The notes: generated from the sequence alone by a model not told the origin. A DNA stretch of 64,000 nt from Candidatus Parcubacteria bacterium (GCA_027450205.1 DAIDJL010000004.1:139932-203931), one strand, 5' to 3'; positions 8,320-32,387 are shown, counted from the stretch's first letter. Translations and numbers: made by a program.

Positions 8320-9015
8320 TTATTGCCAGACAGTACTGACTGGGACGGTAGAAGAACTGCCGATGGTCGGCATGCTTGATGTTGATTCTACGATGGTGCC
8401 CACTTCTGCGGTCCAGGCGCTCGTGGAAGCATTGAGTCCGCCAAAGATCAGAACATCCTTGCCGAGCGGGCCGGGTGCACAGCCGTAATTGGCCGCATCG
8501 CCGGTAGCGGTAATGGGAAGGGTTCCGGTGAATGGCGTGCAGAGCGTGCCATCGCCAAGCTGCACGAGCCATGCCCAGTTATTGGGCGGAAGGCCGGGTG
8601 GGACCTGCGACGCCGGAAGCGCTTTGGTAAGTTTGAGTACGAATGTGGAAGTGGAGGCCGGCACGGTCGGGTTGATATCGCAGAGCAAGGTGCTTGTACT
8701 GCCCGGGATCTCAAAGCACGGGTCGCTGATGCTGTTTCCTACCGTACAGCGCCAGGCATCGGCTCGGAATGGGGCGGCGATGGAATTCGTCCAGCAGGAG
8801 CCGCTTTTCACCGGCGTGGAACTGGCGGGCGTCGGCGGAACATATGCGATGATCTGTGTGGCGGGCGTCGCCGGCGGGGTCTGCGAAGCGGTGGAGGTTG
8901 TTTGATTTACTATCGAAGGATTGATCGGTGCGAGGCCGGCAAAAAATTGTCCTACGCCAAAGAGCACAACGAGCGCGAGCACCACCACTACGACTATTTT
9001 ATTTGTTTTATTCAT
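8320..9015 (-). CDS. Hypothetical secreted protein (N-terminal TM/signal, Thr/Pro-rich linker, Cys-containing globular C-terminus)
   Basis: ORF and composition only. Confidence 0.45.
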   Translation of the reverse strand: MNKTNKIVVVVVLALVVLFGVGQFFAGLAPINPSIVNQTTSTASQTPPATPATQIIAYVPPTPASSTPVKSGSCWTNSIAAPFRADAWRCTVGNSISDPCFEIPGSTSTLLCDINPTVPASTSTFVLKLTKALPASQVPPGLPPNNWAWLVQLGDGTLCTPFTGTLPITATGDAANYGCAPGPLGKDVLIFGGLNASTSAWTAEVGTIVESTSSMPTIGSSSTVPVSTVWQ

Positions 9016-9029
9016 TGTTGATTGATGAG

Positions 9030-9749
9030 TTATTGAAATTTGAACGTGCCGATGATGGTTTGCATGAGCGAATTTATTTTTTGTTCATCGAATGGTTTCA
9101 GATTGTATGATGACGGATAATTTGCGATCTGGGCAGAATGGACCGTGTATTCGACCGCGTAGCATTTTCCTGCATGGAGCGTGCGATAGCTTGTGGTTTG
9201 ATAGTAGTTCCCCGCGCCGGCCCCCGCAGAGTTGAAAACGGTAAAAGAGGTGCCATTGACCATTGCGGTCGAGGTGGCTGTCGCCGGTCCCCCGCTCTGA
9301 TCCGCGGCCATGCAATCAGCGATGGCGGCACTATTGGCGCTTGCGCCGATAGTGAGCTTCGCGTCAACAAAGTTCGTTTGCGGTTCGAACGCGCGCGGCA
9401 CGGTCAATATGAAATATTTTACTCCTGGCGCACCATTGGCACCCAGGCGCCAGTCCACGGACGGCGTGGCTGAATAATTATCCTGCGTATCGAAATCAAT
9501 CGGGTATGCGATGCTGAATCCCCCATTCATGTTGTTGGCGTCGGTCTGCCATTCGGCGGGATTGTTGTAGTATGCCGCGCTTGTGTTGGTGCCAGTACCG
9601 CCGATGCCCATTGTCTGCACTTTGCCGATCTCCGTGATCGTCTTTCCGTATTGCGTTCCATAATAAAATCCGATGAATGGCAACGCCACGAAAAGCGCCA
9701 GCGCAAGCAGCTTTGAATACCACGTTACTTTATTCCATTCTATTTTCAT
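9030..9749 (-). CDS. Hypothetical secreted protein; start placed at MKIEW... (AAGGAG RBS) rather than the listed 9878
   Basis: Signal/TM after MKIEWNKV; the internal ATG is preceded by aaggag. Confidence 0.45.
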   Translation of the reverse strand: MKIEWNKVTWYSKLLALALFVALPFIGFYYGTQYGKTITEIGKVQTMGIGGTGTNTSAAYYNNPAEWQTDANNMNGGFSIAYPIDFDTQDNYSATPSVDWRLGANGAPGVKYFILTVPRAFEPQTNFVDAKLTIGASANSAAIADCMAADQSGGPATATSTAMVNGTSFTVFNSAGAGAGNYYQTTSYRTLHAGKCYAVEYTVHSAQIANYPSSYNLKPFDEQKINSLMQTIIGTFKFQ

Positions 9750-9857
9750 ATGAATAGTATACTCCTTTCGTTTGAAATGGCGTAGAAGGTGGGGTATGCT
9801 ATGCAAAGGCATTACGGTTTTACAAGCATAAAAACGCACCACTTTAGGGAGGTTGTT

Positions 9858-10310
9858 ATGTCCATCGGTTTTCAGCACGACATAGCTGTTTTCATTTGGG
9901 GATTGTCGCTAATCCAGGCGGGATTCTTTATCGTGACCGCGGTTCGCGGCAGGCAACTTCAGCAACAGAGAGCACGCTGCGGCGTTTCCCGTGAAAATGA
10001 CAATGTTCGCCATGAGCGGCTGGGAAAACGTTCGCTATTTGCGATGGCGGTGATCGTGGCTATCATTGATACCACGATCCACATCCTCAAGCTGCCGTAC
10101 TCACCCTTCTTTAAATGGGTCCACGCGCCGATCCTGGTTTTTCTGGTCCTCTTTCTTGCGCTAACCTTCATGTTCAACGGCAGGAAAGATCCGGCGCGGC
10201 ATGCGATCTTTGCTCCGCTTGCCGTGCTGTTTGTCATTGCGGCGACGATCACCGGGGATATTCTTGTTTACCAGCTTATTTGGCTTCACTACCCGACCGT
10301 TCTTCATTGA
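9858..10310 (+). CDS. Hypothetical polytopic small membrane protein
   Basis: GGGAGG RBS then ATG (MSIGF...); about 4 hydrophobic helices. Confidence 0.45.
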   Translation: MSIGFQHDIAVFIWGLSLIQAGFFIVTAVRGRQLQQQRARCGVSRENDNVRHERLGKRSLFAMAVIVAIIDTTIHILKLPYSPFFKWVHAPILVFLVLFLALTFMFNGRKDPARHAIFAPLAVLFVIAATITGDILVYQLIWLHYPTVLH

Positions 10311-10323
10311 GCGGCCGGGTTTT

Positions 10324-11118
10324 TTATATCTGTATCTTTGAGAAGAAATAGCTTCCAAGTCCGAGGAATACGGCGGTGACAACGGCTAGCACGGCAAAAT
10401 CCGTGCCGAGACCGAAGCTGCCGTTGTTCACAAGCAATATCCGGAACGAATCGATGCCGTACGAGAGCGGGTCGAATTTAACAATTCCAGCCAGTACGGC
10501 CGGCAGACCGTCAAGCGGGAAAAGTGCTCCGGAAAGGAAAAAGAGCGGCATAACGAGGAAGTTCATGATGAGCTGGAAGCCCTGCATGTCATCCAGGAGC
10601 GAAGCGATCGCGGCGCCAAGCGCGGCGAAAAGGAGTGCGACGAGCAACATGAAAAGGATCACCACGGGCACGAGCGCCCAGTTATACGGGCGGAAACCGA
10701 AGATCGTCACCAGTATGAGCACGAGCAGGCCCTGCATGGTGGCGACGGTTGCGCCGCCGAGCGTGCGGCCGATCATGATGTTGAGCCGGTTTACGGGCGC
10801 GACGAGCGTTTCTTTAAGGAATCCGAACTGCCGATCCCAGATCATTTGAATACCGGAGAATATTGCAGTGAAAATGATGCTCATGCCGATGATGCCGGGC
10901 GCAAGGAATTCAAAATAGTTTCCCTCCCCCGCTTTTGCGAATACCGAACCGAGGCCGTAGCCGAGCGCGAGCAAAAAGAGGAGCGGTTGGCCGAGCGAAC
11001 CGATAATGCGCGACTTCGAGCGCAAATAGCGCTTGATCTCGCGGAGCCATAAAATATAGATAGTTTTCATTGGGTTTGATATTGGAATTTGTCGCGCTAG
11101 CGCCTTCCTCCGCGCCAC
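10324..11118 (-). CDS. ABC-2 family transporter permease
   Basis: Six-TM ABC-2 permease pattern. GTG start overlaps the upstream ATPase gene (coupling); an internal ATG at about 11070 is an alternative start. Confidence 0.7.
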   Translation of the reverse strand: MARRKALARQIPISNPMKTIYILWLREIKRYLRSKSRIIGSLGQPLLFLLALGYGLGSVFAKAGEGNYFEFLAPGIIGMSIIFTAIFSGIQMIWDRQFGFLKETLVAPVNRLNIMIGRTLGGATVATMQGLLVLILVTIFGFRPYNWALVPVVILFMLLVALLFAALGAAIASLLDDMQGFQLIMNFLVMPLFFLSGALFPLDGLPAVLAGIVKFDPLSYGIDSFRILLVNNGSFGLGTDFAVLAVVTAVFLGLGSYFFSKIQI

Positions 11119-24758: not shown

Positions 24759-26714
24759 TTATTGCGTCACCTCGCCATTCTGATTTTTAGCAAATGGATC
24801 GTCCGGCAGCTGCGTAGTAATCGCGTTAGTCGATTGCGATATTGCCGTGCCAGTGTAGGCATCCGTGGCGGTGAGCGTTGCGGGACCCATCAGAGTGATC
24901 TGTTGACCGACCTGATTGACCGCCGGCGTGTTCGTCACCTGGAACACGGCTGTGACCGGGGCGCTGATCACGCCCGCAGTTGCCGGAATATATGGGATGG
25001 TCCACGTGACCTCACCGGTCCCCGCGTTATAGGTAGGCAACGTGGTTGATGTGAGGCCGGTGCTCGTGGCAACACCGGTGAACGTGGTACCGGACTGCAG
25101 GTACGCCGATATCGTAACATTTTGCATGTCGGTGGAGTAGTTCACGAGGCTCCAATGGATTGTGTATGTGGTTGGCTGGTCAACTTTTGGCGGATAGGGG
25201 CCGGTATTTTTTATGCCCACGGCGGTCTCTTTATAGAAGGCATCCGATGTGAGCGCGATTTCGCCGCCCACTTTGCTGGTGAGCGAGGCGACGGAAACGG
25301 TGTCTGTGCCGGCGGTGTTTGGCGGTACGGTCGGCGACTGCGCTTTTGCGAAGACGTTCAGGGAATAATCCTTGTCGCTCGGCAGCTTTATCGGAAACGA
25401 TGATTTTGTATTGATGGTAAAATCCACCGACCCCGACTGCCCGGGCGGGATCGCCGCGAGCGCCGGAGCATTCGCCGTGTTCCACGTAATGGTGTTGGAT
25501 TGCGAATTGAACGAACCGTTCGTTTTGAGCGATTTGAAATCGTACATTCGTCCGACGAGTGCCGCAGAAATGTTCACCGCCTGGAACGTCACATCGGAAT
25601 CATTCGTATAGGTCAATGTGTAGTCAAGGTTGTCTCCCAATCCGGCAACGTATGTGGATGAGTTATTCAGTGCGATCGTGAACGAGAGCGGCGACGGGGT
25701 GATCGCAAAGTTCACCGGCGCGATGTTCGCGGGATAGTTTTGCCCGCCGAAATTTGCGCCGATCACGCCGGTCAGCTGATATTGCGCGCGCGCCGGTCCC
25801 ACGATGTTGCCCGTGACGACGATCGTGCCGGTCGCATTCGCCGGAAGATCACCAAGGTTCCATGTTTTTGTTTTAAGAGTGCCGAGATCCCATATTGTTT
25901 CCGCCGGAGCGGTGCCGCTTACCGAAATGAACGTGTATGCCGGCGGGTATTGCAGTTGCAGGTCAACGCCCTGCATATTTTCACCCGTATTGTTCTGATA
26001 ATTCATTGCGATATCAAAATTCTGCCCGCTGAAGATGTTGGAAGGTACGGTATAGGACACCGTGAGCGCTGCCTGCGTGCCGACAGCAAGCGATGTGTTT
26101 GCGGTGTTGGTGAACTGCGTATCGGGCGAAGCCGCGGTGCTGTACGTAAGGACGGCGTTCGCGGTTTGCGATGTCCCCGGATCCCCCGTCGCGATCAATT
26201 CTATCGTTTGCGGCGGATTGATCGTTTGCGAACTGAGTGTTCCTATCGGGATCATGAGCGCGCGCTGGCCGGGCGTGGTCCCGGTCGCCACAAACGATAT
26301 TCCCGTCGGAAGCGTCAGGGTTAATTGCGTGTTTCGCAGGGCGCTCTTTGATTGGTTGGAGACGGTGACGGTCAGTGGGAATGGCTCTCCCAATACGATC
26401 GTACCGGGATCGGAAAATGTTATGGCGATGTTCGGCGTTGAGGGCGGAAGCAATAAGTAATAAATGAATGCCGCAAGGCCGATTGCCAGAAAAATTCCTA
26501 TGGTAAAGAAGAGGAGGCTATGGCGCTTAAAGAACGACGGCTGTGCGGGCGGTTTATTCCCGGATTTTTCACCCGGCGGGGGCGTGCCGCCCGGCAGTGG
26601 ATCCTGGGCGTCTTGCGGACGCTGTGCGGTATATGAGGTTTTGTCCCCCGGCGGCGTGTAAGCGTATTTCTTTTCTTTGCTCCCCCACACCGAATTCGGA
26701 TTATAATCGGGCAT
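24759..26714 (-). CDS. Large cell-surface protein: Pro-rich cytoplasmic N-terminus, single TM, about 550-aa extracellular Thr/Asn-rich beta-repeat region (DUF11/CARDB-like repeats)
   Basis: Composition and repeat pattern only. Confidence 0.45.
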   Translation of the reverse strand: MPDYNPNSVWGSKEKKYAYTPPGDKTSYTAQRPQDAQDPLPGGTPPPGEKSGNKPPAQPSFFKRHSLLFFTIGIFLAIGLAAFIYYLLLPPSTPNIAITFSDPGTIVLGEPFPLTVTVSNQSKSALRNTQLTLTLPTGISFVATGTTPGQRALMIPIGTLSSQTINPPQTIELIATGDPGTSQTANAVLTYSTAASPDTQFTNTANTSLAVGTQAALTVSYTVPSNIFSGQNFDIAMNYQNNTGENMQGVDLQLQYPPAYTFISVSGTAPAETIWDLGTLKTKTWNLGDLPANATGTIVVTGNIVGPARAQYQLTGVIGANFGGQNYPANIAPVNFAITPSPLSFTIALNNSSTYVAGLGDNLDYTLTYTNDSDVTFQAVNISAALVGRMYDFKSLKTNGSFNSQSNTITWNTANAPALAAIPPGQSGSVDFTINTKSSFPIKLPSDKDYSLNVFAKAQSPTVPPNTAGTDTVSVASLTSKVGGEIALTSDAFYKETAVGIKNTGPYPPKVDQPTTYTIHWSLVNYSTDMQNVTISAYLQSGTTFTGVATSTGLTSTTLPTYNAGTGEVTWTIPYIPATAGVISAPVTAVFQVTNTPAVNQVGQQITLMGPATLTATDAYTGTAISQSTNAITTQLPDDPFAKNQNGEVTQ

Positions 26715-27231
26715 CTATTGATATTACCGCATCCCGCCGCGCTTTTGAAGCGTGCGCGTGGCAATAGAATTCCTGGGTGGTGGTGTAAAAATAACGCGGC
26801 TGTCTTTCGCCGCACGCGGCGCATTCGGCGTGTTCCGGATCCCATCCCAGTATGCCAAGTGATGTGGTCCAGTTGAACGTACTGCCGGTGAGCAGTTCCC
26901 AAAGCGCCGGCTCCGGCTCCGCTTCGGGGATAAGCTGGCTCAGGAGGTGCAGGTCATTCAGTGCGACCTCTATTCGTGCAGATTTAAGCGCATCAATAAG
27001 CTGTATTCCTTTTGCTTCCACGAAACGTATCTTAGAGAGGATCCCAGGCTCAAGGTGCGGCGCGAGCTTGGACGTGATCTTGCGTGAACTGGTAGCGCGT
27101 CCTACGACCTTGCCAAATTGTTTTGTGAACAGCGTGTAGCGGCCATTAAGGTCGCCCGATGGATCCTTCCTGAGCACAATGGCATCGGCCACATATTCCT
27201 GCATGCGCTCATTATAGGAAAATCGGGCCAT
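26701..27231 (-). CDS. recO: RecO-like recombination mediator (short form)
   Basis: N-terminal OB-fold similarity (DAIVLRKDPSGDLNGRYTLFTKQFGKV) and C-terminal CxxC...CxH zinc module; start placed at MARFSY. Confidence 0.55.
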   Translation of the reverse strand: MARFSYNERMQEYVADAIVLRKDPSGDLNGRYTLFTKQFGKVVGRATSSRKITSKLAPHLEPGILSKIRFVEAKGIQLIDALKSARIEVALNDLHLLSQLIPEAEPEPALWELLTGSTFNWTTSLGILGWDPEHAECAACGERQPRYFYTTTQEFYCHAHASKARRDAVISIDARL

Positions 27232-27240
27232 ATCCGATAC

Positions 27241-27268
27241 TTGACAAGTATATATTCTATGATACAAT
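27241..27268 (+). promoter_or_regulatory. Near-consensus sigma70 promoter: TTGACA, 16 nt, TACAAT
   Basis: Read directly from the sequence; it drives the 50-aa ORF downstream. Confidence 0.5.
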
Positions 27269-27512: not shown

Positions 27513-27549
27513 ATATATCAATTCGTTGTTGTATACTTCTATTGTAAAT

Positions 27550-27894
27550 ATGAAATTATCCGTAAAAAGAGTATATGACCCATATGCAAAAACCGACGGG
27601 TTTCGTGTGCTTGTGGATCGTCTCTGGCCCAGGGGCGTTACGAAAGCCGCGGCAAAAATAGATCTATGGGATAAGCAAATTCCGCCGTCATCTGAACTTC
27701 GCTCATGGTTTCATGTTAATAGGGAAAAGCGATTTAACAGTTTTATAAATAAATATGATCGCGAACTCAGCAGAGGAAAGGCGGTGGCAAACTTAAAAAA
27801 AATACTTCGCGGCAAGAAAACGGTGACAATCGTCACGGCGGCAAAGGATATTGAGCATTCTCATATCCCTGTGTTATTTAAACACTTGCGTTAA
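27550..27894 (+). CDS. DUF488-family protein
   Basis: MKLSVKRVYDP...DGFRVLVDRLWPRG...KIDLWDKQIPPSSELRSWFH...TIVTAAKDIEHSHIPVL matches the DUF488 consensus. Confidence 0.6.
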   Translation: MKLSVKRVYDPYAKTDGFRVLVDRLWPRGVTKAAAKIDLWDKQIPPSSELRSWFHVNREKRFNSFINKYDRELSRGKAVANLKKILRGKKTVTIVTAAKDIEHSHIPVLFKHLR

Positions 27895-27975
27895 CCGTTC
27901 CATCGGTGTGGAGGATGGGATGATATTGATAAATGCATAAAAAAGCTTTATATTAAGATCCAGAGGAGAAAAACC

Positions 27976-28073
27976 ATGTCTCTAACATCTCGGCAGAGGC
28001 TTTTGCTGGTGACCTTGGTCCTTGCCCTCATTTCAATCCTATTTCGGATGATTTCCCCTCATGCCGCCCCTTA
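27976..28073 (+). CDS. Unlisted 32-aa hydrophobic peptide (MSLTSRQRLLLVTLVLALISILFRMISPHAAP) with its own promoter, RBS and terminator
   Basis: Promoter TTGATA-17-TATATT at about 27925-27953; RBS GAGGAGAAAAACC-ATG; stop overlaps a CCGCCCC-ttaaaaa-GGGCGG hairpin followed by TTTAACTTT. Confidence 0.35.
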
Positions 28074-28083
28074 AAAAGGGCGG

Positions 28084-28123
28084 TTTAACTTTGTGCGGGG
28101 TATCGGACCAGGTTCGAACCTAT
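28084..28123 (-). repeat. Repeat A: degenerate copy of the tRNA-Tyr 3' end (T-loop to acceptor), placed immediately 3' of the SET gene
   Basis: Minus-strand reading AAATAGGTTCGAACCTGGTCCGATACCCCGCACAAAG versus the tRNA-Tyr 3' end AGGTTCGAATCCTGCCCGGCGCA. Confidence 0.5.
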
Positions 28124-28124
28124 T

Positions 28125-28532
28125 TCAGTCGTTGAGATAGGGGTCTGTGCTCATTGCGTCAGCCGCATCGAAGGTCCGATAGTTGATCAATATCTCCTCC
28201 CCTGCTTCGATGTCCCGATTTGCAACCCCGCGTGTCTCTGGCTCGCCGTCAAACGGTACTACGTCGAGATTGTTCTTTGTTGATGAATGGTTCATAAAGC
28301 GTGCATCATCAGCGCAATAAATATATTCCCCGCTGTCCGTCGAAAGATAGGCATATCGGACGATGAGGTCTTTCTGTAACTGATCCCATGTCTCGACTTC
28401 TTTTGGATCAAACGAAAGATCAAACCGGGGATCATATTTCCATACACTCGTTCCTTTGGGAATTTTTTCCGTAGCAAACAATCCGAAACCTTCTATGCTA
28501 CTTTGCTTCACAATTGTTTTAACAACAAGCAT
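28125..28532 (-). CDS. Minimal SET-domain protein (vSET-like putative protein-lysine methyltransferase)
   Basis: EGFGLFA...; RFMNHSSTKNN corresponds to the NHSC pseudoknot motif; EEILINY post-SET-like; 135 aa. Leaderless extended -10 promoter TGaTATAAT 6 nt before the ATG. Confidence 0.6.
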   Translation of the reverse strand: MLVVKTIVKQSSIEGFGLFATEKIPKGTSVWKYDPRFDLSFDPKEVETWDQLQKDLIVRYAYLSTDSGEYIYCADDARFMNHSSTKNNLDVVPFDGEPETRGVANRDIEAGEEILINYRTFDAADAMSTDPYLND

Positions 28533-28579
28533 GTCTGTATTATATCAGACTATTAATTTAATGCGTTGAACGGGATTTG

Positions 28580-28732
28580 TGCGCCGGGCAGGATGGGGCG
28601 GATGGGAATCCGCCCCCGAATTGGTTCGCTCGTCGAAAATGAAAACCCGCCCTTGTCGCTTGCCCGTTTTCATTTTCTCCTCGCTGCCAATTCCCGAACC
28701 CTAAAGGGTTCTTATCCTGCCCACCATACGAG
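28580..28732 (-). ncRNA. R1: structured repeat element (copy 1 of 2). Ends with a 15-nt copy of the tRNA-Tyr 3' end. Strand and function unknown
   Basis: Homologous to R2 over conserved blocks with covarying hairpins (GGGGCGGAT/ATCCGCCCC versus GCGCGT/ACGCGC). Long-range pairing GGGCAGGAT/ATCCTGCCC. Confidence 0.45.
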
Positions 28733-28736
28733 TACT

Positions 28737-28765
28737 AAAACAGGATGCCAATGGCATCCTGTTTT
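28737..28765. terminator. Bidirectional terminator hairpin (AAAACAGGATGCC-aat-GGCATCCTGTTTT)
   Basis: Perfect 9-bp stem flanked by an A-run and a T-run. Confidence 0.65.
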
Positions 28766-28801
28766 AGTATGGTGCGGGACAGCGAACCAAATTCGAACCT
28801 A
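28762..28801 (-). repeat. Repeat B: degenerate tRNA-Tyr 3'-end copy abutting the ASCH gene stop
   Basis: Minus-strand reading AAAATAGGTTCGAATTTGGTTCGCTGTCCCGCACCA. Confidence 0.45.
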
Positions 28802-28803
28802 TT

Positions 28804-29196
28804 TTATAGCCGCTCGACCAGGATAAATTCTTCGCAGATAACCTTAGAATTGTCGTTAAATGAGCCGGAGAAGCCCTTAAAGAACTCTCTATGCTTCTCA
28901 CGCCATGCTTCAACATCTGGATCACCTTCCCCTTCCTTTTGGATAAAATCGTACTCAACCCCTAAAAATGACTTAACTTCGGCAGCAGTGTATTGAATAA
29001 TGCAAAATCGTTTACCGTCGCTGCCGAGGATGGCGGCATATTGCCCCTTCACTGGAATTGTTTTGCCCTCCTGCCACAATCCGGTTGTCGCGGTCTTTTC
29101 CCCGGAAAGCACGAGTTGTTTCAGGTGATCAGCCAATTCTTTATCATCACCGAAGTCCCATTCATATAACTGCATTTTTGACCAATCCTTTTCCAT
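28804..29196 (-). CDS. ASCH (ASC-1 homology, PUA-like) domain protein
   Basis: MQLYEWDFGDDKELADHLKQLVLSGEKTATTGLW: the ASCH-like N-terminal beta-barrel pattern; 130 aa. Confidence 0.5.
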   Translation of the reverse strand: MEKDWSKMQLYEWDFGDDKELADHLKQLVLSGEKTATTGLWQEGKTIPVKGQYAAILGSDGKRFCIIQYTAAEVKSFLGVEYDFIQKEGEGDPDVEAWREKHREFFKGFSGSFNDNSKVICEEFILVERL

Positions 29197-29206
29197 AATT
29201 TTTCAA

Positions 29207-29932
29207 TTATATCTTCTTTAGAAGCGGGCATACAAAACCCATGGCTTCAAATGGGCAATGCTCCTCATTTGGACGCTTGGCGTTTGATGGTTTTGATCCT
29301 CGCCGTAAATTGAGAACGCTACGCGGAGATTGCGCTTTTAGAATTTCGTTCAAATTATAATTGGCTATTACCTTTAATTGCGGATGGAGCTGAAAAAGAA
29401 CGTAATCTTTGCGTTCAGGGTGGGTGCGTCCTAGTCCGACTACCGGACATACCGCCCCAGTATTCTGCAAAGCGCTCGCTATCTCTTCCCATGAATTGAT
29501 CTGAGTTCCTGTTTGAATATGAAGCAGTATGATCGTTTTTGCATCGTAAGATTTTGCTTTAGATAATTTCGTCCTACTTAAAAATTTTCCAATATCCTCA
29601 TTTGGTGCGGGAAGAAATGAAACCACTTCAACATCTTGATATTCCCAGTGAGGAGCGTGCTCTCCCTCGGGCGGTAGAAAATGCCCAGTCCTTACATCCG
29701 GGCTACCTTCCAAATCTGCTACGGGTTGCATCCAATGATCACCTTCTGCGATTTGAATGCCGAGCAAAGCATAAGCTGCTACTAGTAGCTCATCAGCTTT
29801 TTTGAACGCCTTGGTAGTTTTTTGATCCGCAGGCATCGAATCTAAATGCTGGGCGTAATGATAAATGACGCTATGCGGCGCATACCAAATCGGGTCTTTT
29901 AGCCAGTATGCTTTGTCTCTTTCATTATTCAT
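29207..29932 (-). CDS. Hypothetical 241-aa protein, no recognisable motif
   Basis: ORF only. The start codon directly abuts repeat C and has no SD. Confidence 0.45.
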   Translation of the reverse strand: MNNERDKAYWLKDPIWYAPHSVIYHYAQHLDSMPADQKTTKAFKKADELLVAAYALLGIQIAEGDHWMQPVADLEGSPDVRTGHFLPPEGEHAPHWEYQDVEVVSFLPAPNEDIGKFLSRTKLSKAKSYDAKTIILLHIQTGTQINSWEEIASALQNTGAVCPVVGLGRTHPERKDYVLFQLHPQLKVIANYNLNEILKAQSPRSVLNLRRGSKPSNAKRPNEEHCPFEAMGFVCPLLKKI

Positions 29933-29966
29933 AAACTTTGTGCGGAGTATCGGACTATGTTCAAAC
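29927..29966 (-). repeat. Repeat C: degenerate tRNA-Tyr 3'-end copy between the NUDIX-fold gene and the 241-aa gene
   Basis: Minus-strand reading GGAAATAGGTTTGAACATAGTCCGATACTCCGCACAAAG, the closest match to repeat A. Confidence 0.5.
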
Positions 29967-29990
29967 CTATTTCCTTCAATTCTCTATTTC

Positions 29991-30416
29991 TTAATGATAC
30001 AAATCCAAGGCTTTCAGAAGCTTTACGGACGGAGGAACGAGGTCATATTGCGATAACATCGTCGTCGGTATCCAATCAACCCTTTCCGCACCCGTCGGCA
30101 CCCTTGGTTGGCCGCCGATATATTTACATATCAGATTCACATATGTGAACTCTTTTAAAATACCGTCATGATCGTTCTTTATTTCGGAATCCGAAGGTAT
30201 CGCACGATCATTCACTTCAACATCAATACCCAATCCTTCTTTTAGATAGTCTTTTAAGGTTGTTGAGTCTTCTTGTTTTGCCGTTGGCTCACATCCGAAA
30301 AGATACCACGTTTCTTTATACGGAGGAGATCCCGCAGGTTTTTTACGCATTAAAATCGAACCATCTTTTTCGATAACGGCGATCAGCAATTTCTTCTGAG
30401 GGAGATCGGATCTCAT
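29991..30416 (-). CDS. MutT-like NUDIX-fold protein with a degenerate Nudix box (catalytic Glu residues replaced by Lys)
   Basis: Collinear with MutT (LLIAVIEKDGSILMRKK...; C-terminal DLVPPSVKLLKAL). The box reads GCEPTAKQEDSTTLKDYLKEGLGI instead of GX5EX7REUXEEXGU. Confidence 0.45.
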   Translation of the reverse strand: MRSDLPQKKLLIAVIEKDGSILMRKKPAGSPPYKETWYLFGCEPTAKQEDSTTLKDYLKEGLGIDVEVNDRAIPSDSEIKNDHDGILKEFTYVNLICKYIGGQPRVPTGAERVDWIPTTMLSQYDLVPPSVKLLKALDLYH

Positions 30417-30441
30417 ACGATCATTCTACCACCTTTCTTTG

Positions 30442-30574
30442 TGCGCCGGGCAGGATGGCGCGTAAGAACGCGCGAAATTGGTTCGCTCGTCGAAAATGAA
30501 ATTCCCCTATTTCATTTTCTCCTCGCTGCCAATTCCCGAACCCTAAAGGGTTCTTATCCTGCCCACCATACGAG
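30442..30574 (-). ncRNA. R2: structured repeat element (copy 2), directly downstream of tRNA-Tyr. Ends with ATCCTGCCCGGCGCA identical to the tRNA 3' end
   Basis: See R1; the two share conserved blocks GAAATTGGTTCGCTCGTCGAAAATGAAA... and ...CATTTTCTCCTCGCTGCCAATTCCCGAACCCTAAAGGGTTCTTATCCTGCCCACCATACGAG. Confidence 0.45.
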
Positions 30575-30611
30575 CAAACAAAAACGGTACTAATGGTACC
30601 GTTTTTGTTTG
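30575..30611. terminator. Bidirectional terminator hairpin between tRNA-Tyr and R2
   Basis: CAAACAAAAACGGTAC-taatg-GTACCGTTTTTGTTTG. Confidence 0.65.
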
Positions 30612-30614
30612 TAG

Positions 30615-30698
30615 TGCGCCGGGCAGGATTCGAACCTGCGTAGCCCATAGGGCGACAGATTTACAGTCTGTTGCGATTGACCACTCCGCCACCGACGC
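30615..30698 (-). tRNA. tRNA-Tyr (anticodon GTA), class II long variable arm, CCA not encoded
   Basis: GCGTCGGTGGCGGAGTGGTCAATCGCAACAGACTGTAAATCTGTCGCCCTATGGGCTACGCAGGTTCGAATCCTGCCCGGCGCA. The acceptor pairs 7/7 (one G-U) and the T-loop is GGTTCGAATCC. Confidence 0.85.
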
Positions 30699-30707
30699 AA
30701 TGTTAGG

Positions 30708-31037
30708 TTATTCAGGCCTTTCTCCTTCCTTATTCTGCCCGCTGATCTCCTTAAAATCAATGGTCGGGCGCTTATCTTCCTCCGGTTTGATCTTTTGCAG
30801 ATGCCGTGCGAGCATATTGTCCAGCTTGAGCACCAATACTTTTATCTTCCGCAGGAACTTGAGTAAAAAATTGTTGAATGCGGCATCGATCTTTTCCGGC
30901 ATCTCGGAGTGCGCCCAGCGCTCCAGAAATCCCCTCTCCTCTGCCGGCGTCTCTTCGATGCGCGGCAATGCCTGCACCGTCAGATAAAACACGATACCGA
31001 GACACACCATCAAGATCGTTGTAAAGATGAATTCCAT
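30708..31037 (-). CDS. Hypothetical small membrane protein (N-terminal TM)
   Basis: ORF only. Confidence 0.35.
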   Translation of the reverse strand: MEFIFTTILMVCLGIVFYLTVQALPRIEETPAEERGFLERWAHSEMPEKIDAAFNNFLLKFLRKIKVLVLKLDNMLARHLQKIKPEEDKRPTIDFKEISGQNKEGERPE

Positions 31038-31078: not shown

Positions 31079-31549
31079 CTATGCTTCAACGCGATAAAAC
31101 TCGCCGACGGTGATGTTTTCCCCCACTTTTGCAATCACTTCGCCGATGATATCCTTTACCGTACGCGATTCGTCCTTTATATACGGCTGGGCCATCAGCT
31201 CTTCTGCATTTTTTGGCGCCGCCGCCGCAATGTGCATCGCAAGATCGTGTGCCAGCTCTTTGAACGGCTCAGAGCGGACGACAAAGTCCGTTTCGGCGCT
31301 CAAATGGAGCAAAACGCCGATCCGCTCGTTATGAACATATGATTGCACGAGTCCCGCGCCCGTCGCACGATCGGAACGCTTTTCTACTTTTACCAAGCCT
31401 TTTTCTCGGATGATCCTGACAGCGGCATCGATGTCGCCATTCGCTTCAATGAGCGCTTTGCGGCAATCCATTACTCCCGCACTTGTGATATCGCGTAATT
31501 TTTGAACCAGTTCCGCCGTGACCGTTGTTTTGGTTTCCATAGTTTTCAA
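31079..31549 (-). CDS. tsf: Elongation factor Ts (short form)
   Basis: N-terminal UBA-like TAELVQKLRDITSAGVMDCRKAL; 156 aa; downstream of rpsB. Confidence 0.85.
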   Translation of the reverse strand: MKTMETKTTVTAELVQKLRDITSAGVMDCRKALIEANGDIDAAVRIIREKGLVKVEKRSDRATGAGLVQSYVHNERIGVLLHLSAETDFVVRSEPFKELAHDLAMHIAAAAPKNAEELMAQPYIKDESRTVKDIIGEVIAKVGENITVGEFYRVEA

Positions 31550-31580: not shown

Positions 31581-32387
31581 TTATTTTTCGTTCGTAGAAG
31601 CGGTCTGGGTGGCGGGCGATTCTGGCGCCGGTGCTGCCACTGCTGCCGCCGCGCGCAACTTAACCCCTTCTTCGTACGCCTTCCCTATCCGCTCCAAAAA
31701 CCATTCAATGCTCTTCTTTGCCTTATCGTTTCCCGGAACGACATAACTGATCTTGTCCGGGTCTGCATCCACATTGGCGAGCGCGACAACCGGGATTTTT
31801 TTGGTATTTGCTTCGCTGACCGCCGTATGGTGCAGGATGGGGTCGATCACGATGACGACATCCGGTTCTTTGGTCATCGCCTCGAGGCCTCCCATCAGCT
31901 CCTCCAAGCGGCGCATCTCGCGCTCCATTTCCAGTCGTTCTTTCTTGGTGTATTTATTGACGAGCGCACCGGATGCGAGATCGGCGCGGAGCGTCTTCAT
32001 GTGTTCGATGCGCTTGACGATGATCTTGAAATTTGTGATCGCGCCGCCGACCCAGCGGGTCGTGACATATGGGATGCCGAGCTTCTTTGCGAGCGCAGTG
32101 ACGCTGGCTTCTGCCGCCGGGACGGTACCCACGAGAAGGATCAGGCCGTTGTTGCGTACACGTTCCTTAATGAACGCCGCCGCCGCATCCATCATTTCCT
32201 CGGTCTTTTGAAGATTGATGATCTCTATTCCCCCGCGGTTGGCCAACACGAACGGGCGCATCTTGGGGTTCGTTTTACTCTTTTTGCGCCCATAAAAAAC
32301 ACCCGCATCCATCATTTCGCGGGAACCTTCCGCCGGATATCCGGACGTCTGGTTGTTCTGCATCGCTATAACTGTGTCTTCTGGCAT
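31581..32387 (-). CDS. rpsB: 30S ribosomal protein S2
   Basis: Full-length S2 similarity (...VTTRWVGGAITNF...); rpsB-tsf order. Confidence 0.9.
   Translation of the reverse strand: MPEDTVIAMQNNQTSGYPAEGSREMMDAGVFYGRKKSKTNPKMRPFVLANRGGIEIINLQKTEEMMDAAAAFIKERVRNNGLILLVGTVPAAEASVTALAKKLGIPYVTTRWVGGAITNFKIIVKRIEHMKTLRADLASGALVNKYTKKERLEMEREMRRLEELMGGLEAMTKEPDVVIVIDPILHHTAVSEANTKKIPVVALANVDADPDKISYVVPGNDKAKKSIEWFLERIGKAYEEGVKLRAAAAVAAPAPESPATQTASTNEK

Follow-up and report, generated by a model that had tools for sequence, protein, structure and literature searches.

[quoted passage not shown] What are these sites, and how did the genes between them arrive? Patescibacteria have very small genomes and, to our knowledge, little is known of how they gain accessory genes. 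We analysed the islet within a 64,000-nt stretch of DNA (the window). A first-pass annotation had listed six sites, all on the minus strand in the orientation of the tRNA, as degenerate copies of its 3′ end. All six were present, the coordinates of three of them (A, B and C) having been off by 2-13 nt (Table 1). Similarity exceeded chance for three patterns: TGTGCGCCGGGCAGGAT with up to 3 mismatches gave 3 matches against 0.31 expected (0 of 100 shuffles reached 3), GGTTCGAACCTATTTC with up to 3 mismatches gave 4 against 0.69, and the 19-mer of A and C gave 2 against 0.04.

Table 1. Features of the islet behind tRNA-Tyr in the window. All exact site positions take the C of GCAC as the junction.
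Feature	Position	Strand	Basis or remark
tRNA-Tyr(GTA)	30614..30698	-	ARAGORN and Rfam
Last 24 nt of tRNA-Tyr, AGGTTCGAATCCTGCCCGGCGCAC, putative attB-type left half-site	30614-30637	-	Junction right after C at 30614
Perfect 16-bp hairpin with A and T tracts, terminator-like, between tRNA and R2	30575..30611	.	
R2, RtT-like structured element: closing helix and three hairpins	30441..30578	-	Folding, RtT match, consensus fold
R2 3′ end, ATCCTGCCCGGCGCAC, equal to tRNA-Tyr 3′ end	30441-30456	-	
Cassette ORF, 141 aa, possibly degenerate NUDIX protein	29991..30416	-	No Pfam match
Element C, AAATAGGTTTGAACATAGTCCGATACTCCGCAC, putative attP-type half-site, type 1 variant	29940..29972	-	
Cassette ORF, 241 aa, without family match	29207..29932	-	
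Cassette ORF with ASCH domain	28804..29196	-	Pfam E=4.4e-15
Element B, AAATAGGTTCGAATTTGGTTCGCTGTCCCGCAC, putative attP-type half-site, type 2	28772..28804	-	
Perfect 18-bp hairpin, terminator-like, between B and R1	28733..28769	.	
R1, second RtT-like structured element	28579..28736	-	Folding, RtT match, consensus fold
R1 3′ end, copy of tRNA-Tyr 3′ end	28579-28594	-	
SET cassette left end, AAATCCCGTTCAACGCATTAAA..., then TATAAT 6 nt before ATG	28539..28578	-	
Cassette ORF with SET domain	28125..28532	-	Pfam E=5.4e-16; homologues in relatives
Element A, AAATAGGTTCGAACCTGGTCCGATACCCCGCAC, canonical type 1 putative attP-type half-site, distal array end	28093..28125	-	

The relation of the elements to stop codons was likewise as described: A and B each overlap a stop codon by 2 nt, and C begins 17 nt past the 141-aa ORF's stop, with 7 nt left between its end and the next ATG. 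A module of tRNA end, hairpin and R element occurs twice, as tRNA-hairpin-R2 and as B-hairpin-R1; the 18-bp hairpin after B parallels the one after tRNA-Tyr. The cassettes seem to carry their own -10 boxes, and some array genes are reversed. Pfam searches, covering the 10 ORFs around the islet, bore out the SET and ASCH labels but not the NUDIX-fold label of the 141-aa ORF, which gave weak PDB matches to the NUDIX fold (2rrk, E=0.0011) and showed no similarity to a cassette NUDIX protein in BLASTP.

Comparison of the sites with one another and with metagenome contigs showed that the repeats are real but comprise three different things: the tRNA-Tyr 3′ end, R1 and R2, and A, B and C. A, B and C belong to a 33-nt family conserved across genomes and are not decayed tRNA copies. 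The family occupies 40 non-redundant contexts and has three types, A and C belonging to type 1 and B to type 2. Identity among type 1 and type 2 elements is 94-100%, against ~75-80% for the backbone DNA of the same genomes. Many unrelated contigs contain elements identical to A and B; for B there are 11 such metagenome loci, the flanks differing in about 8. Arrays hold several copies (6 in L005, at least 7 in L006, 6 in L068), and elements also lie behind tRNA-Leu(GAG) and tRNA-Leu(TAG). Relative to the tRNA, A, B and C carry a constant 5-nt insertion.

These properties bear on the classical account, in which the copies are decaying tRNA-Tyr 3′-end duplicates left by serial islands that have lost their tRNA-targeting tyrosine integrases. 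R1 and R2 do carry 16-17 nt identical to the tRNA end, and tycheposons offer known examples of tandem islands that contain partial tRNAs. Yet identical copies of A and B occur across distant genomes and behind tRNA-Leu, and decay would not yield a constant +5 nt spacing in three sequence types. A tyrosine recombinase, Xer-like, was found beside one small array (L053) and in none of the others; its gene, of the housekeeping XerC/D type, stands convergent on the far side of a terminator. We consider this account improbable and largely refuted; neither the term degenerate copies nor an origin through a tyrosine integrase is supported. A dif/Xer-type site (pdif module) was also considered and rejected, the sole Xer-like gene being the convergent one of L053 and no dif-like dyad being apparent by eye.

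The constant insertion has a precedent. Measured from TTCGAA to the GCAC end, the spacing is 21 nt in every tRNA-Tyr and tRNA-Leu gene and 26 nt in every element of types 1, 2 and 3. In serine integrase sites, the attP half-site carries the 9-bp distal (ZD) motif 5 bp farther outward than the attB half-site does (PMC3783163), and the 21 and 26 nt spacings match this shift. Around the GC of GCAC, the pattern xGGAx occupies positions 8-12 of the B, P and P′ half-sites. If GC is the centre, GGA falls at positions 9-11 on both sides, with a weak distal motif in P′; beyond GGA, the right half-sites (P′) mirror the left arm weakly. Crossover would fall inside GCAC, where symmetry favours GC as the central dinucleotide; GC is palindromic and would not alone fix orientation, and CA or AC is possible. 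The motif AAAATCCGTTTAACGC, which starts many cassettes, is not accounted for by the half-site model. As an attB right half-site it would have about the right spacing, yet no GGA motif is present in it. A stem between cassette ends, seen in L034 (GCCTTATTTAATTG / CAATTGAAATAAGGC), is absent from other junctions.

The hotspot has the conserved backbone rpsB-tsf-p109-tRNA-Tyr-[0.2-5.7 kb variable]-recO. Array content at this position is entirely different between close relatives. In relatives, up to seven cassettes stand behind tRNA-Tyr and tRNA-Leu, each closed by the same elements, in units of 0.4-1.2 kb whose cargo includes NUDIX, HepT toxin, SnoaL and YceI genes. Cargo genes of the window were not found in the arrays of relatives L002-L065; SET cassettes homologous to that of the window were present in L075-L078.

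The islet itself has no recombinase, as the first-pass annotation had stated: none was found among window ORFs compared with XerD, Cre, IS608 TnpA and gamma-delta resolvase, nor did the DNA of the window match the large serine recombinase (LSR) of L040. In relatives, LSR genes with the domain make-up Resolvase+Recombinase+Zn_ribbon adjoin the GCAC end of a tRNA in seven independent loci, antisense into the tRNA 3′ end: tRNA-Leu in five (L040, L066/67, L068/69, L072 and L073), tRNA-Tyr in one (L008+L076) and tRNA-Ser in one (L074). The 3′ end of the int gene overlaps the junction. Wherever the far end of the LSR unit was visible (4/4 loci), it was a P element, 5.4 kb away in L040, 3.8 kb in L066 and 4.6 kb in L068, where the LSR unit is followed by 5 LSR-less cassettes.

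An insertion polymorphism captured one such unit directly. L075 and L008+L076 are near-identical (flanks 97-99.8%) and one LSR unit apart. In L075, the GCAC of tRNA-Tyr is followed by ACGTTATG, SET and P; in L008+L076, it is followed by the LSR, a 198-aa ORF and a P element ending in GCAC, and then by ACGTTATG, SET and P. The LSR unit was therefore inserted exactly at the tRNA-Tyr GCAC, ahead of a SET cassette like that of the window, and the stretch common to the junctions is CGCACA. A second cassette swap between the same two genomes has P elements at its bounds. Units are gained and replaced exactly at the repeats in related genomes. Two loci look like decay intermediates, L054 with a P′ remnant and no LSR, and L076 with an LSR apparently lacking its catalytic domain. 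Scans of a viral collection with the LSR protein, the element pattern and the R pattern gave no match and no phage attP. Taken together, the linkage to LSR genes, the insertion polymorphism and the 5-bp shift argue that each of A, B and C is an attP-type half-site remaining at an attR junction. This agrees with the earlier view that att-like scars divide the islet into cassettes.

The position of the elements directly after stop codons invites two other explanations. They could be the attC sites of cassettes without promoters, on whose folded single strands an IntI-type integrase encoded elsewhere would act; in the arrays, each cassette does hold a single gene and finish in a conserved 3′ site abutting the stop codon, and the cargo (NUDIX, HepT toxin, SnoaL, YceI) is typical of cassettes. 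Against this, the DNA of A, B and C folded no better than shuffled sequence on either strand (z-scores -0.55 to +1.2), no IntI was found (ORFs of at least 120 aa compared with XerD and Cre by phmmer gave a single Xer-like gene, that of L053, which does not stand at the head of the array), cassettes have apparent -10 boxes of their own, some genes are reversed, and the LSR association accounts for the sites. An integron-like origin is thus extremely unlikely. Alternatively, the elements could be functional 3′-UTR or transcript-processing signals, partial tRNA mimics that travel with the genes and between which homologous recombination built the arrays. A T-loop sequence is common to the elements, and the R elements and E. 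coli RtT do look RNA-level. However, the 33-nt elements have no acceptor-strand partner and no stable fold, and by inspection T-stem pairing is not retained among the types. Moreover, cassettes with one and the same left end join six kinds of left partner in register. What these partners have in common is limited to GCAC and 9 nt of T-loop, which is not enough for RecA, and the LSR unit goes in exactly at GCAC. We judge this explanation very unlikely. Mimicry of the tRNA T-arm and acceptor at the RNA level by A, B and C was rejected as a separate candidate, there being no 5′ acceptor partner, lost T-stem pairs and no stable fold.

The single insertion orientation, always after a short target, together with a left-end motif (AAAATCCGTTTAAC) and a right-end motif (AAAATAGGTTCGAAC) that are similar and direct, would also suit 'peel and paste' insertion 3′ of GCAC by an IS200/IS605-type HUH (Y1) transposase, the cassettes being passengers mobilised in trans. 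Two Y1_Tnp genes indeed lie within the L006 array. This tandem IS is nonetheless a separate unit on the opposite strand, bounded by GC-rich hairpins of its own and seen in 1 array of ~25; the left-end motif is missing from many cassettes, and the elements form no hairpin. We find it hardly credible that the islet arose in this way.

The islet is, in our judgement, probably an accretion array: an LSR encoded outside the window would have built it through site-specific integration at the tRNA-Tyr 3′ end. The 33-nt site most likely marks past insertions of LSR-carrying mobile elements. The tRNA end AGGTTCGAATCCTGCCCGGCGCAC would serve as the attB-type left half-site, and an incoming element would bring attP, its left arm being the 33-nt element AAATAGGTTCGAAC..CCGCAC. 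Recombination within GCAC, as predicted for catalysis by the LSR, would leave this arm as the attR scar that closes the insert on its distal side. Newcomers would enter beside the tRNA and displace older units outward, an order that we infer for the window as well. Older units would shed the LSR gene and persist as short cassettes consisting of promoter, cargo gene(s) and arm. Since the window has no recombinase, its cassettes either have decayed or need the enzyme in trans. Recombination of attP with attL or attR is not usual for serine integrases; to enter an occupied tRNA again and again, the enzyme would have to tolerate such pairings.

R1 and R2 differ from A, B and C. Once taken for short scars, they are the ends of structured elements of 140-160 nt whose last 16-17 nt equal the tRNA-Tyr 3′ end. 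Their folding z-scores were -7.0 (R2) and -6.5 (R1). The consensus fold has 45 pairs, 5 with compensatory changes; hairpin c and the tip of hairpin b of R1 differ in sequence from R2 and retain pairing. The R 3′ end follows the tRNA-Tyr of its own genome (G>T in L013, G>A in L021). Full-length matches to RtT (RF00391) scored 19.9 bits for R2 and 15.6 bits for R1, below the curated gathering cut-off of 45. In the reverse comparison, a model built from CPR R copies and applied to the E. coli tyrT locus had the three annotated RtT genes as its top three matches, at 10.6-15.3 bits; part of the R-RtT score stems from the tRNA-like helix. Rfam applied to the L005 array gave only tRNA and hairpin artefacts. 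R elements are placed as RtT is, on the same strand downstream of tRNA-Tyr, with the tRNA-Tyr 3′ end closing a long-range helix. We suggest that R1 and R2 are copies of an RtT-like structured element, presumably an RNA, that natively follows tRNA-Tyr in this clade. Because the 3′ strand of the closing helix copies the tRNA 3′ end, R keeps the inner 12 bp of the attB half-site.

The first reading of the islet is partly supported. With the attP/attB systems of the Listeria phage A118/LI integrase, Bxb1 and phiC31, the proposed LSR array shares a three-domain LSR, integration in one orientation, short att sites with few common bases at the crossover and the 5-bp attP shift. It differs in its target, the 3′ end of class II tRNAs (Tyr, Leu, Ser), in arrays of up to 6-7 mostly LSR-less units, and in right half-sites of poor symmetry. 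In mycobacteriophages, integrases of the serine family reportedly do not target tRNA genes (PMC9262239). Tycheposons and cis-mobilisable elements (CIME) likewise enter at a tRNA and push degenerating units outward with partial tRNA-like repeats between them, but mostly with tyrosine recombinases and true partial-tRNA repeats, whereas the scars here are attP arms 5 nt longer than the tRNA end, in units of 0.4-1.2 kb. Integron arrays and CALINs resemble the islet in stacked single-gene cassettes, a conserved site at the stop codon and the lack of a nearby integrase; here there is no IntI and no folded attC, promoters are apparently the cassettes' own, and the recombinase family is another. RtT RNA (RF00391; rttR, E. 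coli tyrT operon) is alike in its same-strand place after tRNA-Tyr, its repeatability and a closing helix whose 3′ strand is the resident tRNA-Tyr 3′ end, and shares the motif GGAURAGAACC..GGUUCG..AGCGAGRGA with the R elements. In contrast, R copies are preceded by a terminator-like hairpin, are separated by gene cassettes and occur in a very distant phylum, and one variant (L005 14420-14537) ends like tRNA-Leu.

More tentatively, the arrays could be not mere graveyards but a working, integron-like gene-exchange platform run by serine integrases, a possibility that we hold to be rather unlikely. Since each array junction keeps an intact attP-type arm, an LSR element at the tRNA could then use any downstream attR for its excision, gain or lose integrase-less cassettes on the way and carry them to the tRNA-Tyr, tRNA-Leu or tRNA-Ser of another cell. 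The RtT-like elements, with the inner attB half-site kept, would be extra landing pads or decoys, and the same process could have left behind the RtT repeats of E. coli tyrT.

Tyrosine integrases usually use tRNA genes and serine integrases coding genes; serine integrases aiming at tRNA 3′ ends depart from this pattern. The loci provide a concrete set of enzyme and sites (LSR, 33-nt attP arm and tRNA 3′ end), and their natural series of B- and P-type half-sites, with three P types at fixed spacing, displays the half-site rule directly and could give new integrases with short, defined sites. An RtT-like element so far from E. coli reopens the question of RtT function and of RtT beyond enterobacteria. 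For their hosts, the arrays constitute a hotspot of gene flux in tiny genomes.

The six sites that the first-pass annotation had reported as copies of the tRNA-Tyr 3′ end are real, all on one strand of the window. The positions it assigned to the 33-nt elements A, B and C were 2-13 nt off, but their relations to stop codons were correct. Along the tRNA direction the islet runs tRNA-Tyr, hairpin, R2, 141-aa ORF, C, 241-aa ORF, ASCH, B, hairpin, R1, SET, A, where R1 and R2 are structured RtT-like elements; ...GCAC closes every unit, and we define the junction as the position following its final C. Pfam matches bore out the cargo names SET and ASCH, whereas the NUDIX fold proposed for the 141-aa ORF found weak matches among solved structures (best E=0.0011) and none in a Pfam search.

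Features of the islet and its surroundings, with further matches to the R covariance model
Feature	Position	Strand	Remark
rpsB	31581-32387	minus	
tsf, short	31079-31549	minus	
109-aa gene (p109)	30708-31037	minus	
tRNA-Tyr(GTA)	30614-30698	minus	
R2	30441-30578	minus	perfect 16-bp hairpin between tRNA-Tyr and R2
Element C	29940-29972	minus	after 141-aa ORF
Element B	28772-28804	minus	after 241-aa ORF and ASCH gene
R1	28579-28736	minus	perfect 18-bp hairpin between B and R1
Element A	28093-28125	minus	after SET gene
DUF488 gene	27526-27894	opposite to islet	terminator-like hairpin between islet and DUF488
recO	26701-27267	minus	downstream of DUF488 gene
Other R model match	L014 11343-11399	minus	
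Other R model match	L051 3459-3500	minus	

The repetition exceeds chance. A 17-mer common to the tRNA, R1 and R2 occurs three times against 0.31 expected (0/100 shuffles reached three), and a 19-mer shared by A and C occurs twice in the window against 0.04 expected. When the six copies were aligned, A, B and C shared AGGTT(C/T)GAA and CGCAC with the tRNA, with five extra bases in between; a repeat search grouped the three as one 40-nt family (90% and 73% identity). Between A and recO, window 27526-28075 (+) holds the DUF488 gene and a possible small membrane-protein ORF. No DUF488 homologue was found in any related locus by tblastn; this stretch is a further accessory insert without a recognisable element.

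The copies had been described as degenerate, a view that did not survive comparison with other genomes. Six copies behind tRNA-Tyr in the complete chromosome L005 (OY970358.1), and further ones in L004 and L023, match element A perfectly over 33-36 nt; B recurs unchanged at 11 loci in metagenomes, with differing flanks at about 8. A degenerate-pattern metagenome scan yielded 33 further loci; all element loci together make 40 non-redundant contexts, which split into two sharp types, type 1 (A, with C as a variant) and type 2 (B). Type 3, AAAATCGTTCGAAAATCGTCCAGTCGGGTGCAC, occurs in L006, L007 and others. C carries four changes relative to the type 1 consensus, A and B none. Since the backbone DNA of element-bearing genomes is only ∼75-80% identical, perfect 33-mers indicate constraint or recent spread rather than decay. 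The window's units either arrived recently or remain under constraint. tRNA-Leu(GAG) and tRNA-Leu(TAG), whose 3′ ends read ...AGGTTCGAATCCTCTCCCGCGCAC, are also followed by elements in the same orientation. The elements are not copies of the tRNA-Tyr end. A, B and C folded no better than shuffled sequence on either strand, which speaks against a role as attC-like sites or as RNA. A ‘cassette’ of L005 (15880-16235), flanked by type 1 elements on both sides, has no ORF and contains stretches resembling fragments of 16S (...CTAGTTGGCGGGGTAAGAGCCCACCAAGGCTACGACGGGTA) and 23S rRNA (...GTAGTGGCGAGCGAACG); Rfam gave no match to it at E<=0.1.

Comparison of contigs placed the joins between units precisely. 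Where two contigs have a common upstream cassette, similarity stops with the final base of GCAC (five pairs, all at offset 0), and where the downstream part is common the match begins at the element; in the trio L061/L064/L034, the two variable bases of the element go with the upstream cassette. The cassette left end AAAATCCGTTTAACGC is joined in one register to tRNA-Tyr, tRNA-Leu, type 1, type 2, short-variant and R-type ends. GCAC and the T-loop are all that these partners have in common, which points to a site-specific join. In cassette genes of the window (28530-28544, minus), L004 (11713-11724 and 12752-12767) and L005 (13876-13889), a TATAAT-like -10 box ends exactly 6 nt before ATG with no Shine-Dalgarno sequence, which suggests leaderless mRNAs and promoters borne by the cassettes.

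No recombinase was found in the 64-kb window by comparing its ORFs with XerD, Cre, IS608 transposase and resolvase, and its DNA with the large serine recombinase (LSR) of L040. Among all ORFs scanned with XerD and Cre, only one tyrosine recombinase appeared, at the distal end of a mini-array in L053, convergent and past a terminator. The IS608 transposase and resolvase scan gave two results. One is a tandem IS200-like pair in the L006 array (Y1_Tnp E=3.7e-28), on the other strand and with its own GC-rich hairpin ends, which we treated as a lodger; its two identical 610-nt copies (9185-10407) have CCCCGGG hairpin ends and follow a type 3 element by 2-5 nt. The same tRNA-Tyr array has a reversed tRNA-Ala (8607-8681) between two elements.

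The other result is a 620-aa LSR in L040 (Resolvase, Recombinase, Zn_ribbon_recom), which begins 1.6 kb from tRNA-Leu(GAG) and reads toward it, its last codons spanning the GCAC junction; the unit closes 5.4 kb away with a type 1 element. In L008 a homologous LSR 3′ end lies directly behind tRNA-Tyr (L008/L040 junctions GCAC|AACACAGGAAAATTC... and GCAC|AAGACAGGAAAAGTT...). The LSR family is large and CPR-wide, and in every context retrieved its 3′ end adjoins either GCAC of a class II tRNA or a P-type arm, that is, an element half-site. The tRNA is tRNA-Leu(GAG) in L066/L067 (the genome of L004), L068/L069, L072 and L073, and tRNA-Ser(TGA) in L074; a P-type arm is met in L070/L071 and L049. 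The L070/L071 contig carries relaxase and coupling-protein genes, and its junction of P with P′, the right half-site at the LSR 3′ end, is a candidate intact attP. The 3.8-kb LSR unit of L066 is closed by a type 1 element and followed by secDF; in L051 the same backbone comes after tRNA-Leu, another cassette and a type 1 element. In L068 a 4.6-kb LSR unit at the tRNA precedes five cassettes without an LSR, all of them ending in an element. The LSR genes of L066 (9001-10746) and L068 (7920-9764) are intact.

Three further observations concern these LSR loci. L070 1-14840, in a 24-kb contig, holds the LSR with contiguous P|P′, two Replic_Relax genes, a TrwB/DUF87-like ATPase and HTH genes, and may be the unintegrated form of a conjugative or mobilisable Patescibacteria element. 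At tRNA-Ser(TGA), L074 1607-10693 combines an LSR (52% identical) with DNA methylase+Vsr, HATPase, Z1 and DUF4420, which looks like a defence module. In the 3′ part of the LSR genes, at about 65 and 170 nt from the junction, lie two GGTTCGAACC palindromes (L040 5325-5365, 5440-5470; L008 2288-2300, 2381-2440; L066 10456-10570), which may be accessory binding sites or coincidence.

Presence and absence of an LSR unit could be compared directly between L075 and L008+L076, whose flanks are 97-99.8% identical and whose arrays differ. L075 reads tRNA-Tyr ...GCAC|ACGTTATGTTTAGCGCATT...SET-stop-AAGAGGTTCGAACGTGGTCCGTTACCCCGCAC, whereas L008+L076 reads tRNA-Tyr ...GCAC|AACACAGG...LSR...198-aa gene...GGAGGTTCGAACTTGGTCCGTTACCCCGCAC|ACGTTATGTTTAGCGCATT...SET.... 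The two alignments overlap only in CGCACA; the LSR unit thus entered exactly at the tRNA end, before the older SET cassette, bringing a P element. Further along, the two genomes also differ by a block that begins where one element ends and stops where the following element begins. The called L076 LSR gene has 287 codons, only residues 222-416 match, and it appears to lack the catalytic domain; L054 keeps a P′ remnant alone. Both look like steps toward LSR-less cassettes. The SET cassette layout is conserved in the window, L075/L076 and L077: homologous left end, -10 box shortly upstream of the start codon (at 6 nt for the window copy), SET, and arm at the stop. No tRNA lies within 6 kb of the L077 cassette.

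The geometry of the half-sites bears on mechanism. The span that starts with the initial T of TTCGAA and finishes with GCAC measures 21 nt in all tRNA-Tyr and tRNA-Leu genes compared (36 genes, 8 sequence variants) and 26 nt in the canonical elements of types 1, 2 and 3 without exception, in a search that permitted 22-30 nt. Numbering outward from GC of GCAC, xGGAx occupies positions 8-12 in B arms (tRNAs), P arms (elements) and P′ arms (LSR 3′ ends; for example P AAAATAGGTTCGAACCTGGTCCGATACCCCGCAC with P′ AACACTGGAAAATC...), and TTCGAACC occupies 12-19 in B arms and 17-24 in P arms. In sites of the A118-family integrase, the 9-bp zinc-ribbon-domain motif occupies positions 16-24 of attP and sits 5 bp nearer the centre in attB, with minimal attB sites some 10 bp shorter than those of attP (PMC3783163). 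The spacing shift agrees with this in kind and size, and is our main mechanistic argument. P′ arms mirror the distal motif poorly. Orientation control requires a non-palindromic centre; GC, the candidate central dinucleotide of GCAC, is palindromic, and CA or AC within GCAC is a possible crossover centre.

R2 and R1 fold into a closing helix (GGGCAGGAU with AUCCUGCCC) and three hairpins (z-scores -7.0 and -6.5). L013 and L021 have a homologue directly behind tRNA-Tyr; the one in L004 comes after a type 1 element. The five copies support a 45-pair consensus with five pairs changed on both sides, and their hairpin-c sequences are wholly different yet still paired. Hairpin c of R2 equals that of L013 and hairpin c of R1 resembles that of L021, so the window copies are not a fresh local duplication. 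The last 16 nt follow the genome's own tRNA-Tyr (CCCTGCGCAC in L013, CCTACCCGACGCAC in L021). Rfam RtT matched over the full model on the right strand, at 19.9 bits (R2) and 15.6 bits (R1) against a cut-off of 45. E. coli RtT, whose function is unsettled in the literature, shares GGAURAGAACC, the GAACC..GGUUC hairpin and AGCGAGRGA with R, and a covariance model from CPR copies alone top-ranked the three annotated RtT genes in the E. coli tyrT locus (ends within 5 nt, 10.6-15.3 bits). We read R as an RtT-like element native behind tRNA-Tyr. It retains B half-site positions 1-12 including GGAT, without the distal motif, and cassettes in the window begin directly after both R ends. An R-like variant after a type 1 element and hairpin (L005 14420-14537) ends in GAATCCTCTCCGCGCAC, the tRNA-Leu(GAG) rather than tRNA-Tyr 3′ end minus one base. 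L025 5939-6073 (-) is an R-like body without closing helix, antisense to a tRNA-Ala gene start (32 bits, R covariance model); the model also matches lone long hairpins AGCGAGGAG-AAAAU...AUUUU-CGACGAGCGA elsewhere.

A, B and C are probably attR scars from at least three integration events. B followed by hairpin-R1 resembles an arm joined to the former immediate neighbour of the tRNA, in which case the present tRNA-hairpin-R2 would have arrived with later DNA. Tycheposons follow the same accretion logic at tRNA genes, newcomers displacing older, degenerating units outward, but mostly use tyrosine recombinases. Mycobacteriophage serine integrases are reported not to use tRNA genes (PMC9262239), and our literature search found no paper joining LSRs, tRNA targets and Patescibacteria.

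RpsB relatives were Candidatus Paceibacterota/Minisyncoccia genomes of about 0.8-0.9 Mb. The order rpsB-tsf-p109-tRNA-Tyr is conserved in 21 loci, and recO follows the variable stretch in the 12 whose sequence reaches it; from tRNA-Tyr to recO this stretch spans about 0.2 kb (L020), 0.4 kb (L002) and up to 5.7 kb (L006). In L023 (12041-14700; compared with L051 2233-4780 and L039/L066), the secDF backbone, elsewhere behind tRNA-Leu(GAG), comes after tRNA-Tyr, a single cassette and a type 1 element, without recO; two arrays seem to have undergone a chromosomal rearrangement at an element common to both. Array cargo elsewhere includes NUDIX, SnoaL, YceI and HepT toxin, and later comparison found homologues of the window's SET gene in other arrays (L075, L076, L077). 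The earlier comparison, with the arrays of relatives L002-L065, had found none of the window's cargo genes. The tRNA-Tyr locus is a hotspot whose content is wholly replaced between relatives.
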